From a virus (taxonomy: Duplodnaviria; Caudoviricetes), in IMG/VR virus record IMGVR_UViG_2891785506_000002, positions 2,420 to 66,419 of that record: a DNA stretch of 64,000 nucleotides; one strand, 5' to 3'. The notes below the pieces were generated by a model. That model had not been told where the DNA came from. It did not search any database and was given only the letters and a program-made list of their open reading frames with translations. The position numbers were made by a program, and so were the translations under genes. Shown in pieces: positions 702 to 64,000 of this stretch. Every line of letters begins with the position of its first letter. The first letter of the stretch is position 1.

Positions 702-935
702 ATGGCAATCAAACGCAACCCCAGGATAATAAAAGCTGACGAAATCGGGTACGTCCCGAGAGAGGCTATAAAAGAAACATTGCGTGTTAGTGATGACACG
801 CTTGAAGAATGGAGGAAACTAGGTCTTACTAGAAGAGTGATCGGTAAAAAGGTTTTTTACTCGTTGCAAGAATTGCAACGATTCATGGAGGCATTCAGGG
901 AGGAGCAAGAAGAGTACAAGCACGTTGGAATTTAA
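702..935 (+). CDS. Excisionase-like/MerR-type HTH protein
   Basis: REAIKETLRVSDDTLEEWRKLG...IGKKVFYSLQELQRFM is a winged-HTH Xis-like pattern. Confidence 0.6.
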   Translation: MAIKRNPRIIKADEIGYVPREAIKETLRVSDDTLEEWRKLGLTRRVIGKKVFYSLQELQRFMEAFREEQEEYKHVGI

Positions 936-945
936 TTAAAGTAGC

Positions 946-1155
946 ATGACTATAAATTTCGATAAAGAGGGCATTCCCGTTAAAGACAAATCATTCAGGG
1001 AGTTCAAGACAGCTTATTTGATAGGCATGACTAAAGTACAAAAGTACGTCGAATGTATTGCTGATCGGCTAAAGGTAAAATACAACTTGACAGACGAGCA
1101 ATACATGGATGCAGTAGATGTAATAGTTAATGAACAATTTATTCAAAAGCCATGA
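946..1155 (+). CDS. Hypothetical phage protein
   Basis: 69-aa ORF in operon register. Confidence 0.55.
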   Translation: MTINFDKEGIPVKDKSFREFKTAYLIGMTKVQKYVECIADRLKVKYNLTDEQYMDAVDVIVNEQFIQKP

Positions 1156-1638: not shown

Positions 1639-2655
1639 ATGAAAGCGTACAAAGGTTTTAAAAAAGATTTTACATGTAGAGGATTTCAGTTCGAGGAAGG
1701 CAAGGAATACGAGGAAAAAGAGGCGGTGTTATGTGAAAAAGGTTTCCACGCCTGTATTAACCCTCTTGATGTACTTAACTATTATAAAGATATAGATAAC
1801 AGATATTGCGAAATAGAACTTGACGAGGTATCAAACGACAAAAAATATAATGATTCTAAAATCTGCGGCAAGCGTATAAAAATAAACGCCGAAATCGGAT
1901 TTATTGGATTATTCAAAATGGGGATAGAATGGTTGAAGGAACAAACTATATTCTCGAAAAATGATATAGAGGAGTTAGAAAAATCGTCGGGTAATGATGC
2001 AAAGATCGGGTCGTCGGGTGATTACGCAAAAATCGGGTCGTCGGGTAATGATGCAAAGATCGGGTCGTCGGGTAATGATGCAAAGATCGGGTCGTCGGGT
2101 GATTACGCAAAGATCGGGTCGTCGGGTGATTACGCAAAGATCGGGTCGTCGGGTGATGATGCAAAGATCGGGTCGTCGGGTGATTACGCAAAGATCGGGT
2201 CGTCGGGTGATTACGCAAAAATCGGGTCGTCGGGTGATTACGCAAAGATCGGGTCGTCGGGTGATTACGCAAAAATCGGGTCGTCGGGTTATAATGTACA
2301 GATCGGGTCGTCGGGTGATTACGCAAAGATCGGGTCGTCGGGTAATGATGCAAAGATCGGGTCGTCGGGTGATTACGCAAAAATCGGGTCGTCGGGTGAT
2401 TACGCAAAGATCGGGTCGTCGGGTGATTACGCAAAGATCGGGTCGTCGGGTAAAAATAGCGTGGTGATGTGTGCTGGGTGTAATTCGATAGCGAAGGCAA
2501 AAATTGGCTCTTGGATAACACTTGCCGAATATAAATATGAAAATGGAGAATGGGTGCCTGTAAACGTGGTAACCAAAAAAGTTGATGGTATCGAGATAAA
2601 AGAAGACACTTATTACAAGTTAGTCAACGGGGTATTCACGGAAGTAAACGAATAA
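1639..2655 (+). CDS. Phage protein with a 9-aa SSGxxAKIG repeat (beta-solenoid-like)
   Basis: N-terminal KAYKGF...CRGFQFEEGKEY...GFHAC domain followed by 17 nonapeptide repeats. Confidence 0.8.
   Translation: MKAYKGFKKDFTCRGFQFEEGKEYEEKEAVLCEKGFHACINPLDVLNYYKDIDNRYCEIELDEVSNDKKYNDSKICGKRIKINAEIGFIGLFKMGIEWLKEQTIFSKNDIEELEKSSGNDAKIGSSGDYAKIGSSGNDAKIGSSGNDAKIGSSGDYAKIGSSGDYAKIGSSGDDAKIGSSGDYAKIGSSGDYAKIGSSGDYAKIGSSGDYAKIGSSGYNVQIGSSGDYAKIGSSGNDAKIGSSGDYAKIGSSGDYAKIGSSGDYAKIGSSGKNSVVMCAGCNSIAKAKIGSWITLAEYKYENGEWVPVNVVTKKVDGIEIKEDTYYKLVNGVFTEVNE
1984..2442 (+). repeat. 27-bp coding tandem repeat, 17 copies
   Basis: Unit TCGTCGGGT(G/A)AT(TAC/GAT)GCAAA(G/A)ATCGGG counted directly; one divergent unit (YNVQ). 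Confidence 0.95.
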
Positions 2656-2869: not shown

Positions 2870-2955
2870 GGGAGCGCACAGCTTGGAGAAGCATTCTTTT
2901 CTACACTTTCGCACACATACACACACCCACGAGGGTTCGAGCCCCTCCGCTCCCA
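2870..2955 (+). ncRNA. tRNA-like element (intact acceptor stem and T-arm, no anticodon arm)
   Basis: GGGAGCG 2870-2876 pairs with CGCTCCC 2948-2954. T-arm GAGGG-TTCGAGC-CCCTC. Interior is unpaired and AC-rich. Confidence 0.6.
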
Positions 2956-4176: not shown

Positions 4177-5077
4177 CATGACACAAGCAAAAGAACAACA
4201 AGCACAAATGTCGTTTGAACAAGGATCGGATAACAAGGTAGTTAAAGTAGAAAACAAGCAAGAGGCTCCGGTAGCGAAAAAAGAAAATCTTCCCGCTATT
4301 CCAAAGAAACTGGTTGATGCTGGATTAGCGACCTGTTTTCTTGCGCCTAAGCAAGCATTTTTGGCGGCAGGTGGCAGCAAAGAACAATTCGCGAGGGAAG
4401 TAAACTTCTCTATGCAGGCGTTGATGAACAACGAGTTTCTATTAAATTGCGCTAAAAGCAACCCGGAATTTCTTATTGAAGCGATAAAGAATGTCGCTCT
4501 AACAGGCTTGACGCTTAATCCCGAATTGCGACTTGGTTATCTTATCCCGTATAAAGGGAAAATAACTTTCCGCAGTTCTTACATGGGCAAGGTTGATATT
4601 CTTATCCGTTCCGGTATCGTTAAATGGATTGAAGCCAATCTAGTTTACGAGAAAGATACCTTTAACGTGGTTAAAGGTAGCAAAGAAGAGATCACGCATT
4701 TTCCCGATGTATTCGCTTCTGACCGTGGAGGTGTACAAGGAGGTTACTGGATTGCCACCATGCCGAACGGGTTAAAGGTTTTCGGGGTGATGTCGAAAAA
4801 CGACATAGATCAAATCAAGCAAAGAAGCGAATCGGCAAAATCCGGAGGACAAACACCTTGGAACACGGACTACGAGGAAATGGCGAAGAAAACGATAATA
4901 AACAGGGCGTTTAAATCTTTGCCGAAGTCCGGCATATCTGATGCCGTGTTAAAGGCGATGGAAATTGACGGGCAATATGACCGGGAAGAGTTTGAAGACT
5001 GGAAAAAGCAGCAAGAAACAAACGTTAGAGATCGTTTTAACGAGGATGACGTAACAGAGGCTAGCATAGTGGAATGA
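4169..5077 (+). CDS. recT: RecT-family single-strand annealing protein
   Basis: GL.LNP.L..GYLIPYKG, SYMG, PW.TDYEEMAKKTII.RAFK.LP motifs. Confidence 0.9.
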   Translation: MNNMTQAKEQQAQMSFEQGSDNKVVKVENKQEAPVAKKENLPAIPKKLVDAGLATCFLAPKQAFLAAGGSKEQFAREVNFSMQALMNNEFLLNCAKSNPEFLIEAIKNVALTGLTLNPELRLGYLIPYKGKITFRSSYMGKVDILIRSGIVKWIEANLVYEKDTFNVVKGSKEEITHFPDVFASDRGGVQGGYWIATMPNGLKVFGVMSKNDIDQIKQRSESAKSGGQTPWNTDYEEMAKKTIINRAFKSLPKSGISDAVLKAMEIDGQYDREEFEDWKKQQETNVRDRFNEDDVTEASIVE

Positions 5078-6443: not shown

Positions 6444-6468
6444 ACACTGCCCGGTTTCACGGGCACAC

Positions 6469-6652
6469 GAACGAGAATAGTCATAGGGTGCTAAGACCAA
6501 ATGAACGGAAGTTGCAAGTGTACATAGCAATGTATGTCATCAAGACCGTGCAGCAGCAGACATCTAGTAGGTAAGACGTGAGAATAGCCAATATCACGAA
6601 CGAACGTAGAAAGCTGACGATACTTGTGCGGGTTCGACTCCCGCCTCGTTCT
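6469..6652 (+). ncRNA. Large (184-nt) tRNA-like structured RNA
   Basis: GAACGAG 6469-6475 pairs with CTCGTTC 6645-6651. T-arm GCGGG-TTCGACT-CCCGC 6628-6644. About 150-nt structured interior; fills an intergenic gap. Confidence 0.65.
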
Positions 6653-57761: not shown

Positions 57762-58819
57762 AAATTCTTACTCCCCTTTGATAAGATCAAATATCTTTAT
57801 TCAATTTATTTATTACACCACAAATATAACGTATATTTTATACAAATCAAAATATATAAATACTTACACACAATATATTATATGAATCAATTAAAGTATT
57901 ACTTCATATATATTTTTATACACGAAATGATACAAAACACGGAGAAAACAAAGTTGTTAATTTTCGTTTGGCAATGTAAACAATGATGACACTAAAAAAT
58001 AAGAAAAAAAATTTTTAGATGGGGTGAATAGCCCCGTTTCTCGTTATCTCGCAGGGGGGGGAGGGTACAGTATATTATATGTATAATATTCAAAATTAAA
58101 ATTATACACATATATGTACTAGCGTGTTATGTTTGCGCATTCGTGAATATTTTATGTACTTTTAGATATTTACAGGTGTTGTTTTAGACACTTTTTAGTC
58201 ACTTTGATAGACTGAAAACACATCGACGATAAAAGAGATTGAATCGAGGTAATCCATCCTTATATCTTCCTATATCATTATTCACGCCTTACATGCGTAT
58301 ATTATTGTTATACTCTTTGCATTGTGGAATGTTTGTAGATGTATTGCTTTATTATCCCGATGGAATGCTATAAATTACACATCTGATGCTGGCTATACAT
58401 TGTTGTGTATTATATTATCATTGTGTTATAATATTTGCCAAAAATAAGTGTTAAAATATCATTGATTTGGCATGTATGAAATAATTTAGAATGGTTCAAG
58501 ATAACCTTTCCCTCGTACGCTTAATTGTGTCGTGTTATAGGGCACTTATTACGAATGGTATCCGGTCTTATCTTTATAAAAATAGTGCGAATGGTGGTAT
58601 TTATTTGATTATACGTTTAAAATACGGTGTTATTGCATGGCATATATTTCTATACAACTGTATATCAATCAAATAACCATTAAAATATTTTGCTATTTTG
58701 CTACATTGTAGTATCTTTAAGTATAGAACAAAAGGAGATAACAAAATAGTTACTCTTTCGCCGGTCTTAAAGTTGTTCGCCGGTATATAAACAGGAAGCT
58801 TCGAACCGAATAAAGGTTG

Positions 58820-58883
58820 TATATCTTAATGCGGCTGCCATTGGTAACGGTTCCAAGCCCGTGATAACGCAGAGGAAGATATA
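58820..58883 (+). ncRNA. Twister ribozyme (type P1)
   Basis: P1 TATATCT/AGATATA, UAA, P2 TGCG/CGCA, P3 TGCC/GGTA, P4 ACGG/CCGT, L4 TTCCAAGC; pseudoknots TCC/GGA and GC/GC. Predicted cut U58827^A58828. Confidence 0.88.
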
Positions 58884-58949
58884 ATAAAAAAGGGGCAATG
58901 AAGCCCCGAACGTTACCGGCGTATTCCGGTAAACAAAATCCGTACTAAT

Positions 58950-59012
58950 ATGGAACTGACAATTTGTATTAGAGTTTGGAAAGTAAAGCTAACGATTAGC
59001 GTAAAGCTTTAA
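58950..59012 (+). CDS. 20-aa small ORF inside a long-range stem
   Basis: MELTICIRVWKVKLTISVKL; flanked by AAAATCCGT/ACGGATTTT. Confidence 0.4.
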   Translation: MELTICIRVWKVKLTISVKL

Positions 59013-59067
59013 TTCCAAAACCCCGGGTAAAACCGGGGACGGATTTTTGCAAATATACGAAATAATC

Positions 59068-59241
59068 ATGAAAACGTACACGAAAGCACAATTAATTAAA
59101 TCGGCTGTAAAAATGGGTTGCAATCCCTTGGAAGCCACCAATCGAATAAACAAAACTTATAACTATTACGTGACTTATAGAAGTGACTACAATTTGAAAA
59201 AAGCGGCTCATTATTGCATGTATATAGCACCTTGTAACTAA
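59068..59241 (+). CDS. Small hypothetical protein
   Basis: Likely start is ATG 59068 (MKTYTKAQLIK...). Confidence 0.55.
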   Translation: MKTYTKAQLIKSAVKMGCNPLEATNRINKTYNYYVTYRSDYNLKKAAHYCMYIAPCN

Positions 59242-59242
59242 T

Positions 59243-59286
59243 TCCCCGAACGGTTTACGCCCTTGGTTCGATTCCTGGGCGGGGAC
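59243..59286 (+). ncRNA. tRNA-minihelix-like element (acceptor-like stem + T-arm)
   Basis: TCCCCG/CGGGGA stem stacked on a stem with a TTCGATT loop. Confidence 0.45.
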
Positions 59287-59316
59287 AAATAATAATAACA
59301 ATTAAAATAAATAATC

Positions 59317-60486
59317 ATGAAACACTTTAAAAACATTAGCAGCATTGCGGAATTGAAAAAAGAGTATCGCAAACTAGCCCTAGCGAATCACCCGGACAAA
59401 GGAGGTAACACCGAGGTAATGCAAGAAATAAACGTTGAATTTGACGTACTTTTCAAGATCTGGAAAAACGAACCATCAAAAGATGATGAAGTAGAAACAG
59501 CAACGAGTGAAACAGCTAGCGAGTACCGGAGGAACTTTTACACGTCTAATGGTTGGGAAGGTAGCCGTTACGATTTTAGCTTAAGCACGAAAGACATTGC
59601 CGCCAGGGTAAGAGAATACGTTAAAATACAGTGGTCAGGATGGAAATTTAGCGTGCGTTGCAAATACGCGTCCATGTGTTCCGAAATCGTAGTTTATCTC
59701 AAGGGCGGACCGGTGGCAGATCCGCTATCTAGTGAAGGGAGAGAAAAAGGATATTATAACCCGCAAATCTCATACATGAAGGAAGAAGATAGTCGGTTAA
59801 ACGATCTAGTGAATGCCGTTATGCTGGACGTGAACGCCTATATAGACAGTTTCCGGTACGACGATAGCGACGGAATGATAGACTATTTCGATACCAATTT
59901 CTACAAGTTCGTTGAGGTCCGCTCGTCCGATTGGGAGGAAATACACAAAACAGCACGGGTGAAAGAAGCTAAAAAAGGGGTAATGGTTAGTGAGGATCAC
60001 GAGGAAGAAACGAACACGGTAACGGTTGAAGATATAGAAATCATCGATTACTCGGAAAAAGCGGTCGCTGTGTTTGGCAACACGAAAGCTATAAAAGAAG
60101 ATTTAAAACAGTTGGGAGGACGATTTAACCCGGCTTTGAAGTACGACGGCGGGAAGCGTGCCGGGTGGGTATTCTCGAAAAGTAAGCGCGAAGCACTGGT
60201 AAGCCTGTTAAAAGGGATTGACATGGACGAAAAGCCCAACGAGGGAAACGATATACAGTTAATTCCCAGCAGCCGAGAAGAACGCGCGAAAATGGATACC
60301 GTTGCTTTCACGGATTTTATCTCGTGTATTCAGAGAATAGCGATCGAAAACGGGTATTTACACGCTAGAAATCACGTGAAAGAAAAGCTAAAAAACTACT
60401 ATATGAAATTCGTGCAATTGAAATATATTGCCGTTATGCTGGCGGAATACAAGAAGAGGAGCAGTAATAACACGATGGCAGCTTAA
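59317..60486 (+). CDS. J-domain (DnaJ-like) multidomain 'polyvalent' protein
   Basis: ELKKEYRKLALANHPDKGG...MQEIN..F (J-domain with HPD); middle LPD29-like region (DIAARVR.YVK..W..WKFSVR); C-terminal YSEKAVAVFG.TK.IKE.LK.LGGRFN domain. Confidence 0.7.
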   Translation: MKHFKNISSIAELKKEYRKLALANHPDKGGNTEVMQEINVEFDVLFKIWKNEPSKDDEVETATSETASEYRRNFYTSNGWEGSRYDFSLSTKDIAARVREYVKIQWSGWKFSVRCKYASMCSEIVVYLKGGPVADPLSSEGREKGYYNPQISYMKEEDSRLNDLVNAVMLDVNAYIDSFRYDDSDGMIDYFDTNFYKFVEVRSSDWEEIHKTARVKEAKKGVMVSEDHEEETNTVTVEDIEIIDYSEKAVAVFGNTKAIKEDLKQLGGRFNPALKYDGGKRAGWVFSKSKREALVSLLKGIDMDEKPNEGNDIQLIPSSREERAKMDTVAFTDFISCIQRIAIENGYLHARNHVKEKLKNYYMKFVQLKYIAVMLAEYKKRSSNNTMAA

Positions 60487-60515
60487 TTTTAATAATAACC
60501 ACCCTTTGTTTGTAA

Positions 60516-60586
60516 GCCGTCCTGGCGGCATTAAATAGCTTTTAAGCCGGGAGCGTCCCGACCAGATTTGCCCGGTCGGGGGTAAG
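60516..60586 (+). ncRNA. Pistol ribozyme
   Basis: P1 GCCG/CGGC; loop TCCTGG pairs with CCGGGA (pseudoknot); conserved TTAAATAG and GCGT; P3 CCCGACC/GGTCGGG; P2 CTT/AAG. Predicted cut G60582^U60583. Confidence 0.88.
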
Positions 60587-60603
60587 AATTAAATTTTAAT
60601 ATC

Positions 60604-61566
60604 ATGGAAACAATTAAAGACACTGGAAATATAAATAGTGCTCTGTTTAACAATGGAGTGAGCGACCATACTATTATTGGTATGATAAATTCGGGGATGC
60701 TACCGGAAGAGATTAACGATATAGACGTTTTTAAGCGAGAATGGCGTAAAACATTCACGGGTAGTTTTTTGCTTAAATACCCGAGGTATTACGGGATAAT
60801 CAATACAATACGACGGATAGTTGGACGCCTCCCGGAATGGGATGATTTCACGAGGCAAAATATACGGGATATCTCGGAATACTTTAAAAATAATTGTTGC
60901 GGTAGTTCGGCACGGACATACACGGCTATGATCCGTTCCGTGCTGAATTATAACAGGGAAATAGCCAATATCCCGTGCAAAGATTTCGAGAACGAGTTAA
61001 GGGTGAAAAACGAGCCGCACGTGGCGATATACTTGACGGTGGACGAACTGTGCAAACTGGAAAGATTCAAGCCGGAAAACGAACGGGAAGAGGTTATTTT
61101 AGCGCAATTCCTTGTCGGATGTTATACCGGAGCCAGGCATTCGGATATCTTGTGCATGAACGAGGATAATATACAAGGAAAATATATAACCTACGTTAGC
61201 AAGAAAACGAAAATTCCGGCAACGATAGAACTGAAAAAAGGCCTTCCCAAGTTACTGGAAATAGCCGTTACCCGGGAGTATGCCGAATCTACTTTTAACG
61301 ACACGATAAAAGATATATGCCGGAAAGCGGGGATTGATAGTAAAGTGAAGGTTTTTAAAGCCGGGAAAAGCTTGACTGGGCACAAGTACCAGTTTGTTAG
61401 CAGCCACACTGCTAGACGGTCGTTTGCTTCCAATTTGGCAATTCTTGGAGTTCCCATCCGGGAAATACAATTGAGAATGGGTCATAGCAGTACAACCATG
61501 ACCGAGCGTTATATTTTGGCTCCGGTGAATAAATTACCCGAGTCAGCGAGAGAGTATTTCAAGTAA
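60604..61566 (+). CDS. Tyrosine recombinase (second, no arm-binding domain)
   Basis: YTGARHSD, KKTK, SSHTARRSFA, MGHSS..MTERY: R-K-H-R-H-Y catalytic set. Confidence 0.92.
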   Translation: METIKDTGNINSALFNNGVSDHTIIGMINSGMLPEEINDIDVFKREWRKTFTGSFLLKYPRYYGIINTIRRIVGRLPEWDDFTRQNIRDISEYFKNNCCGSSARTYTAMIRSVLNYNREIANIPCKDFENELRVKNEPHVAIYLTVDELCKLERFKPENEREEVILAQFLVGCYTGARHSDILCMNEDNIQGKYITYVSKKTKIPATIELKKGLPKLLEIAVTREYAESTFNDTIKDICRKAGIDSKVKVFKAGKSLTGHKYQFVSSHTARRSFASNLAILGVPIREIQLRMGHSSTTMTERYILAPVNKLPESAREYFK

Positions 61567-61598
61567 ATTATTAACTTTACAATTTAAATTTATAGAGT

Positions 61599-61739
61599 AT
61601 GCTAACGATTGGTGCGATAATATGGTTTATTATAATTCTGATCATTTTGGTAAACTTGATCGGGTGGGGTTCATTGATTTTCGTGGCTCTTTTTTTCTTG
61701 TTTTTCTTTATTAATTACAAAGGGAGGAAACAGGAATAA
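61599..61739 (+). CDS. Small hydrophobic membrane protein (46 aa)
   Basis: Manual translation MLTIGAIIWFIIILIILVNLIGWGSLIFVALFFLFFFINYKGRKQE. Confidence 0.45.
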   Translation: MLTIGAIIWFIIILIILVNLIGWGSLIFVALFFLFFFINYKGRKQE

Positions 61740-61885
61740 CTGTATTTCCCAAGAATCATTTTCTTGAGATAAATTCTATTTTATAAAATTTCATCCCCGA
61801 ATAAGTTCTATAATTCGGAATTATTTTGCGTATTTAGTGACAAAACTTACATATTGTTGAATAATATATTTAAGTATTATATATC

Positions 61886-61914
61886 TGCCCCGCTTTTGTA
61901 GCGGGGCTTTATTT
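61886..61914 (+). terminator. Intrinsic terminator
   Basis: GCCCCGC-TTTTGTA-GCGGGGC followed by TTTTATTTTT. Confidence 0.7.
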
Positions 61915-62054
61915 TTATACGTGGTTATTATTTGTATTGTGTATAAATAACAAATTTCCATGAAAATATTTTGATTTAATATATACTATTTCAAATAAAA
62001 GTTCTATATTTGCATTGTAGTTAAATCAATAGTAACAATCAAAAAATTAAAGCC

Positions 62055-62786: not shown

Positions 62787-62818
62787 AGCGGGATTATCCT
62801 CCCGCTTTATTTATTTTC
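62784..62818. terminator. Bidirectional terminator between HU and integrase
   Basis: AATAAAGCGGGA-TTATCC-TCCCGCTTTATT. Confidence 0.7.
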
Positions 62819-64000
62819 CACTTGATTCAAGCAATCAATCACTTTGCGATTATTTTCATCTATCTGCCTCGTGTCATACCTAGCATATATATCCGTTACA
62901 TCAAAACTGCCATGTCCCAACATTTCGGCAACATCTTCTTTACTTATGTGCAACAATTTACGAGCGATAGTAGCGTGCGTGTGCCGGGCATGATAAAGCT
63001 TCAATCCAGGTTCGCCAATAACCTTCCCGATAACCTTTAAATTAAAATTAACATTAGCATTAAAAGCGTGCGTGCTCCTGTATCTCTTGTAAAAACTAAA
63101 CATTCTCTCGTCATCCTTGTATTTCTCGATTAACTCTAAAAGTTCCGGTTGTAAGCCTATGTCATAGCGTTTCCCGGTCTTGTTTCTTTTGTACACGCAT
63201 CGGCTCCCTTTCTTTAACTCGTATAAATCAGAAGAATTTATACCGATAAGATAAAATGTAGCCATGAATACATCTTTAGCAATCTCTATCGATTCGCATT
63301 TCGCCTGGTAGTCGCGAATAGCACGCATTTGCTCTATCGTCAATGGCATTGTATCCGACATCTTTTTGGATTCAATCTTATATTTACGGAACGGGTAAAC
63401 CGATATTAATTCATCATCCAAGGCGTCATTGAAAATTTTACGAATATTTCTTAAATGCAAGGATCTAGTGTTTAAAGAAGGGCAATCCTTTTTCAGCCAC
63501 TTGTCAAACGCCTTAATCCATGGCACATTCATTTCCTCGAAAGTAAGATCCACTCCACCATATTCCACGACTTTTTTTAGGGTTTCCGTGTATATTTCCC
63601 GGGTTCTTTCATTGTCCATTAAATCCAGAGCATTACGATAATATTCAGCAAAAATAACTTTATGATTCTCTTCTTCTTTCTTTTCCCTGGAAGAATCTAA
63701 AATATATTTTTTAAGTTCCGTAACGTTCATAGTTTCAATTTTCCCGTTTTGTTCTAGTTGCAAGATGCAACTCTGGACCTTGTTCATCGAACGCAATAAA
63801 TCCGCATTAATCAAGGAGGCATTAGGATAAGTTTTTTTCACTTCCATTCCTATTTTCCCTTTTACCCACATATCCCTCGGGATAGAAATTCCCATCGCCA
63901 TAGCCGTGGTCTTCCGGTTGCATGTCAAACGAATAATAACAGGATAAGTATTATCCTTTCGCTTGCTTCTCTCGTCAATAGTCAATACTGCTGATGCCAT
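62807..64000 (-). CDS. int: Phage integrase (tyrosine recombinase with arm-binding domain)
   Basis: N-terminal arm-binding domain (DN.YPVIIRLT..RK), SAM-like middle, catalytic GIN..DL, RNKT, YHARHT.ATIA, LGH......TDIYA. Confidence 0.93.
   Translation of the reverse strand: MASAVLTIDERSKRKDNTYPVIIRLTCNRKTTAMAMGISIPRDMWVKGKIGMEVKKTYPNASLINADLLRSMNKVQSCILQLEQNGKIETMNVTELKKYILDSSREKKEEENHKVIFAEYYRNALDLMDNERTREIYTETLKKVVEYGGVDLTFEEMNVPWIKAFDKWLKKDCPSLNTRSLHLRNIRKIFNDALDDELISVYPFRKYKIESKKMSDTMPLTIEQMRAIRDYQAKCESIEIAKDVFMATFYLIGINSSDLYELKKGSRCVYKRNKTGKRYDIGLQPELLELIEKYKDDERMFSFYKRYRSTHAFNANVNFNLKVIGKVIGEPGLKLYHARHTHATIARKLLHISKEDVAEMLGHGSFDVTDIYARYDTRQIDENNRKVIDCLNQVENK

Follow-up and report, generated by a model that had tools for sequence, protein, structure and literature searches.

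Twister, pistol and a tRNA-like minihelix in a putative accessory-gene operon of a prophage: a candidate case of RNA punctuation

Clusters of self-cleaving ribozymes have been reported beside genes of phages (Weinberg et al. 2015, summarised by PMC4604425 and PMC6765202). This clustering was the basis on which the pistol class was discovered, and Alistipes putredinis, a member of the Bacteroidota, was the source of the first pistol to be characterised. Prophage polycistrons have been found to contain hammerheads (Perreault et al. 2011, PMC3088659), and it has already been proposed that ribozymes process polycistronic RNA (PMC4604425; PMC6765202, section 13), the biological role of such ribozymes being described as 'largely elusive' (PMC6765202). 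Another precedent is the tRNA punctuation of mitochondrial transcripts and the t-elements of plant mitochondria, where tRNAs or tRNA-like folds lie between coding regions (Forner et al. 2007, PMC1920247). A stop codon often stands directly before them, and cutting by RNase P and RNase Z is thought to define the mRNA ends (PMC1920247). The window considered here, the whole stretch of 64,000 nt that was analysed, belongs to a 66.4 kb IMG/VR provirus (IMGVR_UViG_2891785506_000002) and carries a twister ribozyme, a tRNA-like minihelix and a pistol ribozyme in what looks like a single operon. The proposal made for it, that it is a punctuated operon in which three co-oriented modules would cut the transcript at cistron boundaries, is evenly balanced in our judgement.

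As in the clustered phage ribozymes, the twister and the pistol of the window lie within 2 kb of each other, on the coding strand, beside phage genes. Unlike those clusters, they share their operon with a signal of the host-enzyme type, the tRNA mimic, and their relatives permit a comparison junction by junction; the roles in both cases are proposals. The mimic resembles mitochondrial punctuation and the t-elements in that a tRNA-like fold lies between co-transcribed coding regions, directly after a stop codon. It differs from them in belonging to a bacteriophage, in being a 43-nt acceptor/T-arm minihelix with neither D nor anticodon arm, and in that its processing is predicted only. RNase P also cuts substrates other than tRNA, including intercistronic sites in Escherichia coli operons, the C4 RNA of phages P1 and P7, and the species 1 and 2 RNAs of phage T4. 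The window element is likewise an acceptor/T-arm mimic in phage or messenger RNA for which a host enzyme is proposed, but the known substrates are single cases, whereas the minihelix is a sequence family of at least 115 members repeated between genes. An earlier note on this DNA, made from its letters alone, had called the arrangement its best candidate for an undescribed system. That overstates the matter for ribozyme clustering and for the processing of polycistrons, both already in print; the new part is the family of tRNA mimics that occupies the same slots as the ribozymes. A literature search found no description of the minihelix family or of tRNA-mimic punctuation in phages, and cmscan against Rfam 15 gave no family for the minihelix.

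The three elements share a fold on the coding strand, purifying and compensatory selection, a site at a cistron boundary and a short AU-rich spacer to a start codon, which lies about 20 to 48 nt downstream. Comparison of the sequences indicates that all three are genuine strand-specific RNA folds under selection, and Rfam matches, covariation and strand-specific folding bear out the earlier note, which had recognised them at gene boundaries. Its placing of them between successive genes holds for the minihelix and the pistol; the twister instead lies in the 5' leader, about 100 nt past the promoter, and not between two genes. The cuts that the note had predicted at 58828 and 60583 agree with the consensus cleavage sites of the two ribozymes, U58827/A58828 and G60582/U60583, positions within the motifs that we take to be those of the published structures.

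The twister is predicted to self-cleave at the U-A step of its conserved UAA, present at 58827-58829. Every one of the 18 pairs that make up P1, P2, P3, P4 and the T1 pseudoknot is standard in each of the four aligned sequences, and 11 of the 18 have changed on both sides, including two of the three pseudoknot pairs. None of 500 shuffles was as good, and slid registers pair only 35-52%. Twisters stand at the head of the operon in the related loci L109, L110 and L112 (49-51 bits) and L106 (46.8 bits), an overall range of 46.8-50.7 bits. A blastn search of the phage collection returned a sole match, a 50-nt twister stretch in Phage Phass-1; in this phage of the human gut the sequence (OQ749652.1 109033-109081, minus strand) is 88% identical to the core of the window twister and is unannotated. 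The leader between promoter and twister is near-invariant among the window, L106, L109 and L110 (alignment A4). Conservation is higher there than in the twister, and the leader may serve as an operator or be set free as a small RNA. Of the two conserved hairpins on the 3' side of the twister, the second has changed in a compensatory manner in L110, from TACCGG/CCGGTA to TCCCGG/CCGGGA.

The pistol matches the consensus blocks CGUC, GGCG, UUA, GAGCGU and GGU in full and AUAAA at four of five positions, the first A being U in the window. In the window its P2 has just 3 bp, against 4 bp for the pistol of L106. It is predicted to cut at 60582/60583, giving a 21-nt leader. A pistol also directly precedes the recombinase in L106/L108 (55.3 bits), and another is found in G018 (locus L135), a complete phage with direct terminal repeats (57.7 bits), so that intact pistols are present in three lineages. 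In all three a conserved box, ACCACCCYTGTTGTA, lies before the pistol (in L106 at 4893-4909 and in L135 at 2190-2206, minus strand). This box might extend the ribozyme or offer the GGGGG beside the cut site another pairing partner.

The minihelix of the window consists of a 6-bp acceptor stem (59243-59248/59280-59285), a 12-nt GG-containing linker (59249-59260, AACGGTTTACGC), a 6-bp T-stem (59261-59266/59274-59279) and the T-loop TTCGATT (59267-59273). It thus has the stack of about 12 bp and the tRNA-consensus T-loop of a minihelix-type substrate for RNase P and RNase Z. With these coordinates it begins 1 nt past the stop of a 57-aa gene and ends 31 nt before the next ATG; the inter-open reading frame (inter-ORF) scan starts it at 59244 and hence reports 2 and 32 nt. 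It precedes the gene for a J-domain/LPD29 protein in L113 and L109-L112 as in the window, and in L135 it stands ahead of an unrelated gene of 66 aa. The stem of the L109 copy has changed from CCCCG/CGGGG to CCCTT/AAGGG, and the mismatch in the T-stem has become a pair. A true tRNA was rejected: ARAGORN finds no tRNA gene in the window, the Rfam tRNA model RF00005 has no match at E<=10 within 58400-62000, and the space between acceptor strand and T-stem is only 12 nt. The minihelix is not an intrinsic terminator, since no U-tract follows it, nor an attP site or fragment of a tRNA gene, because its 5' strand co-varies with its 3' strand and many phages have several intergenic copies.

The family was defined by the pattern AACGGYT-N7-9-GGTTCGATTCC, which fixes only the start of the linker and half of the T-arm and which matched at least 115 IMG/VR contigs. 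The flanks are unconstrained in this pattern, and testing them involves no assumption of pairing. Five or more contiguous pairs were nonetheless present in 92 of the 113 distinct copies listed, against about 8 of 113 when flanks were exchanged between elements. Among 78 copies, T-stem and acceptor together make 11-12 bp in 60, like the tRNA stack of 7+5; the acceptor occurs in 43 different sequences, G-U pairs number 27, and the discriminator is A in 46. Tails are mostly ACA or ACG. A looser scan, run over related loci that total about 0.85 Mb, had 39 matches, compared with about 4 in shuffles; nearly all of the non-tRNA matches are on the coding strand, each with GG in the linker. The GG sits at the position where a D-loop would make contact with the T-loop. 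Conservation is highest in the T-loop and the GG linker, which mimic the elbow of a tRNA. With the covariance model R1, matches outside the window and outside the training set are all on the plus strand; the lone minus-strand match is weak and lies inside the window. The copies fill gaps between co-directional ORFs, beginning 0-37 nt past the stop and ending 12-48 nt short of the next start. Several contigs (L132, L175, L153, L180, L121) have two to six copies of the AACGGTT type each, on a single strand. In such multi-copy contigs the gaps between successive small genes are filled and the acceptor stems differ between copies of one contig.

Relatives of the operon were reached through recombinase homologues of 80-86% identity (569 recombinase homologues in all); searches of viral and genome contigs gave no recombinase relatives, whereas the route through homologous proteins did. 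The window has leader, twister, hairpins with a 20-aa short ORF (sORF), 57-aa gene, minihelix, J-domain/LPD29 gene, pistol and recombinase, in that order. L106-L108 have leader, twister, 29-aa sORF, pistol and recombinase. L109 has twister, hairpins with sORF, 57-aa gene, 72-aa gene, minihelix, J-domain/LPD29 gene, a plain hairpin and recombinase, and L110-L112 are like it, with a 70-aa gene for the 72-aa one and a 135-aa gene directly after the twister. No twister is present in L113-L114 (minihelix, LPD29 gene of 473 aa, 40-nt gap, recombinase) or in L135/G018 (58-aa gene, 68-aa gene, minihelix, 66-aa gene, pistol, 132-aa gene). Across these six lineages, the window included, the pistol is found in three and the minihelix in five. 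When present, the elements are always at cistron boundaries and on the coding strand, sometimes around different cargo genes. The layouts therefore support conserved positions where an element is present, yet each element is patchy and dispensable. The earlier note had asked whether relatives swap one class of cutter for another at the same junction. No ribozyme was seen replaced by a tRNA mimic across the compared lineages, only presence or absence and swaps between variants of the mimic. The mixing of ribozyme and mimic recurs in L135/G018, where minihelix and pistol flank the 66-aa gene, and in L003, where a single ORF lies between a type II hammerhead and a minihelix. Further out, 18 loci around distant homologues of the J-domain protein held just one type II hammerhead at the gathering threshold, and no ribozyme was found at E<=0.05 in eight minihelix-bearing loci of such homologues.

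RNase P and RNase Z identify their substrates by the length of the acceptor/T stack (11-12 bp), by a T-loop of the tRNA type and by the elbow. With two self-cleaving ribozymes and a mimic of such a substrate in one shared setting, the most economical reading is that all three would cut the transcript; cleavage in vivo, the enzymes and the purpose are what we infer from the folds, the selection on them, their position and their strand. The twister would cut at 58827/58828 and shed the conserved triphosphate leader of about 100 nt. The RNA downstream would then begin with a 5'-OH, the ribozyme fold serving as its cap. By copying the acceptor/T-arm stack and elbow of a tRNA, the minihelix would recruit host RNase P for a cut immediately upstream of 59243, which is one or two bases past the stop of the 57-aa gene, and RNase Z might cut after 59285/59286; the J-domain mRNA would thus be freed with an AU-rich leader of about 30 nt. 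Cleavage by the pistol would leave this mRNA a folded 3' end that carries a 2',3'-cyclic phosphate and would give the recombinase mRNA a 5'-OH leader of 21 nt. The outcome would be separate RNAs able to differ in stability and translation. The earlier note had supposed that the ends of these RNAs are protected. This is partly plausible, in that twister and pistol would each leave a folded ribozyme body on one product. Its suggestions as to purpose, the control of stoichiometry and the evasion of host RNases, are conjecture.

Several observations weigh against a punctuated operon. The elements are dispensable in close relatives: the pistol is absent from L109-L113, which have a gap of 54 or 40 nt there, the twister from L113 and L135, and no Rfam ribozyme was found in the more distant relatives L115-L119, whose layout is still primase, promoter, small genes and recombinase. 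The 53.5 bits of the window twister are under the Rfam gathering score of 67.2. The T-stem of the window minihelix has one U-U mismatch, and the minihelix has no encoded CCA; a 3' RCCA is absent, the tail being ACAAAT. An RNase P cut right after the stop codon would leave a bare 3' end, a poor fit to protected ends, and the hairpin at 59021-59048 could halt many transcripts ahead of the genes. Among 50 other minihelix-bearing phage records only one, G018, has a pistol, which rules out a general co-occurrence of pistol and tRNA mimic, and types II and 3 of the hammerhead are absent from all five multi-copy minihelix records (5/5). The mixing of ribozyme and mimic is therefore lineage-specific.

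It is conceivable, if unlikely, that exchangeable cassettes carry the elements as passengers or boundary markers, be it as recombination linkers or as selfish insertions, whose cleavage has no role in the expression of their neighbours. Their presence does vary among relatives that are 80-86% identical while conservation is kept in the 20 nt that lead up to the recombinase start, one and the same minihelix and pistol surround the 389-aa J-domain gene in the window and the 66-aa and 132-aa genes in L135, and the conserved box travels with the pistol. Helices and pseudoknot have been held intact by compensatory changes, however, and the G-U pairs and the strict coding-strand orientation indicate selection at the level of RNA rather than DNA. 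The acceptor sequences also differ between copies, which would therefore offer little homology for recombination. Another reading concerns the minihelix alone, as a tRNA mimic that is not a cut site: a 5' stabilising cap or a translation insulator of the gene downstream, or a binding site or decoy for host proteins that recognise the T-arm, for example the CCA-adding enzyme, TruB, TrmA or defence nucleases directed at tRNA. We give this a small chance. Lacking an anticodon arm, the minihelix cannot decoy anticodon nucleases; the 11-12-bp stack and the frequent A discriminator fit the way in which RNase P and RNase Z are known to measure their substrates; and the slot is of the same type as that of self-cleaving ribozymes, both in the window operon and in L003. 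In its favour are a spacing that is tighter to the downstream start (27-48 nt) than to the upstream stop (1-37 nt), the conservation of T-loop and GG linker above all other parts, and the four to six copies in many phages.

The ribozymes might also act singly, as remodellers or switches of the 5' end of one gene rather than as coordinated punctuation, the twister stripping a regulatory triphosphate leader and the pistol tuning the recombinase by uncoupling it from the upstream message. The place of the twister in a leader more conserved than itself would suit this, as would the nearness of the pistol to the recombinase start (16 nt in the window, 17 nt in L106) and the independent gain and loss of twister, pistol and minihelix. 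The pistol of L135 lies before an unrelated 132-aa gene, however, and the twister of L110 directly before a 135-aa gene that is not in the window, so neither ribozyme is tied to one gene, and we consider this account improbable. The punctuated operon is left as the preferred reading, with RNA cleavage at cistron boundaries as the common denominator of the three elements. Its extension to a general RNA punctuation of phages is more tentative, and we lean somewhat against it: interchangeable cutters, either ribozymes or tRNA mimics that borrow RNase P and RNase Z, would bound exchangeable cassettes and split polycistronic RNA. Were it true, it would give bacterial twisters and pistols a job and define a large uncatalogued family of tRNA-mimic signals. 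The role of twister, pistol and most bacterial hammerheads has been open since their discovery, and the operon with its natural relatives offers a concrete, testable system. If RNase P or RNase Z cuts the elements, phage operon maps and models of gene expression would gain an extra layer, and synthetic operons a source of compact, host-powered insulators.

The operon appears to be a single accessory-gene operon of a gut prophage of Bacteroidota type, of about 3.2 kb (~58720 to 61917) with one promoter. It is bracketed by that promoter and a single strong terminator (Table 1). The promoter is the sole plus-strand match to TTTG-N17-22-TANNTTTR within 58200-62000, and it is kept in L106, L109, L110, L113 and L135. 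A host among the Bacteroidota is what several features of the window suggest, namely its -33/-7 promoter motifs, the domains of its integrase, and the sources of the RecT homologues, which are named Dysgonamonadaceae and Azobacteroides. The gene set is as the earlier note had it: 20-aa sORF, 57-aa gene, J-domain gene and tyrosine recombinase. The domain around the sORF is closed by a 9-bp long-range stem (58935-58943/59039-59047). The sORF is conserved in L109 and L110 with synonymous or conservative changes, the 10 nucleotide differences from L109 comprising 4 synonymous and 6 conservative ones. The terminator-like hairpin that follows is weaker than the terminator at the end of the operon and is kept in the same two loci. 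The region 58935-59048 might act as an attenuator that includes a leader peptide, or it might form a separate small RNA, with the twister producing its 5' end. The 57-aa gene has homologues of 72-84% identity in L109, L110 and L135 and no Pfam or PHROG match. In the 389-aa protein LPD29 scores 45.2 bits (Pfam) and DnaJ (PF00226) 25.6 bits, slightly under the cut-off of 27.8, with HPD at codons 25-27. The catalytic domain of the recombinase (PF00589) scores 46.4 bits, above the cut-off of 27.1, and the protein belongs to PHROG 1, integrase. The N-terminal part (26-31 aa) of the 46-aa ORF is 64-65% conserved inside longer, 111-aa ORFs of L109 and L110.

Table 1. Features of the window discussed in the text
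Feature	Position	Strand	Basis or remarks
85-nt tRNA-like element	2870-2954	+	7-bp acceptor, T-arm, D-like hairpin, CA-rich insert
Second minihelix	3125-3168	+	linker CGATTCAGTCGTG, 6-nt TTCGAT loop; alignment and covariance model R1
183-nt tRNA-like element	6469-6651	+	7-bp acceptor and T-arm around a 152-nt insert
Bacteroidetes-type promoter	58689-58719	+	TTTG-N19-TATCTTTA; motif match
Conserved leader, about 100 nt, between promoter and twister	58720-58822	+	TTCGCCGGT twice, 11 nt apart
Type-P1 twister, RF03160	58823-58880	+	53.5 bits, E 2e-10, full model 1-68
Two conserved hairpins 3' of twister	58892-58932	+	fold z-score -2.7
20-aa sORF	58950-59012	+	peptide MELTICIRVWKVKLTISVKL; ORF within stem-closed domain
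Terminator-like hairpin, possible attenuator	59021-59048	+	6-bp all-GC stem, then ACGGATTTTT; terminator scan
57-aa gene	59068-59241	+	ORF list
tRNA-like acceptor/T-arm minihelix, 43 nt	59243-59285	+	no D or anticodon arm
J-domain and LPD29 protein, 389 aa	59317-60486	+	Pfam, HPD motif
Conserved box immediately 5' of pistol	60498-60514	+	ACCACCCYTGTTGTA; outside Rfam model
Pistol, RF02679	60515-60587	+	61.9 bits, gathering score 34.5, full model
Tyrosine recombinase, 320 aa, without arm-binding domain	60604-61566	+	PF00589
46-aa hydrophobic ORF	61599-61739	+	ORF list
Strong intrinsic terminator at operon end	61887-61907	+	8-bp stem, 7 GC pairs, then TTTATTTTTA; terminator scan
Integrase with Arm-DNA-bind_5 and SAM_5 domains	62807-64000		Bacteroidota pointer

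The recombination operon of the window had also been described in the earlier note as punctuated by tRNA-like elements, at 2870, 3124 and 6469. All three exist: a strict scan for an acceptor plus T-arm finds those at 2870 and 6469, with an expectation of 0.005 per shuffled window, and the second minihelix was found by alignment and R1. Its score of 58.2 bits with R1 arises by construction, the sequence being part of the source alignment of the model. It has an independent homologue in L056 (7007-7055), where both stems co-vary and CGATTCAGTCGTG and TTCGAT are kept, and this homologue marks a separate subfamily. The second minihelix lies 27 nt before a PD-(D/E)XK exonuclease gene. In G018, with which the recombination operon was compared, a canonical minihelix with a 7-bp acceptor takes its place before the conserved leader of the exonuclease gene. 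Close homologues of RecT were found only on contigs of 2-3 kb.

The 85-nt element has a fold z-score of -3.2 and a homologue at the same position in G018 (L237 1560-1660, minus strand), with the same hairpin and an altered acceptor and T-stem. The 183-nt element sits between a 188-aa gene and a VRR-NUC gene, and its minimum-free-energy fold closes on the acceptor stem. A hairpin and ACAC precede each of these large elements (2848-2954 and 6449-6651 with the element included). Neither was called by ARAGORN as a transfer-messenger RNA or an intron-bearing tRNA, and both of these candidates were rejected.

Oversized tRNA-like RNAs are also held in the RecT operons of related phages, at L081 6051-6213, L090 8474-8636, L070 6982-7088 and L236 ~905-1035 (minus strand). 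They have a D arm of the tRNA-Leu type (GGCGGAATTGGAAGACGC), a T-arm and an insert of 60-130 nt in place of the anticodon arm, and ARAGORN calls none of the four. Other relatives of the RecT operon, L061-L069, have an 80-nt element (L061 8234-8313, for example) with a 7-bp acceptor and T-arm, on the coding strand and after a conserved hairpin; ARAGORN found no tRNA in L061, L064 and L065, the three scanned. A DUF3800-I RNA (84.4 bits) is present in L034 (7397-7520, minus strand), close to a relative of the J-domain/LPD29 gene. Just upstream of the arm-type integrase of G018, L135 1500-1555 (minus strand) forms a 55-nt tRNA-like fold that has an acceptor, an anticodon-like arm with the loop TCTAAAG and a T-arm but no D arm and is followed by a terminator, and this fold could be the core of attP or a further punctuation element.

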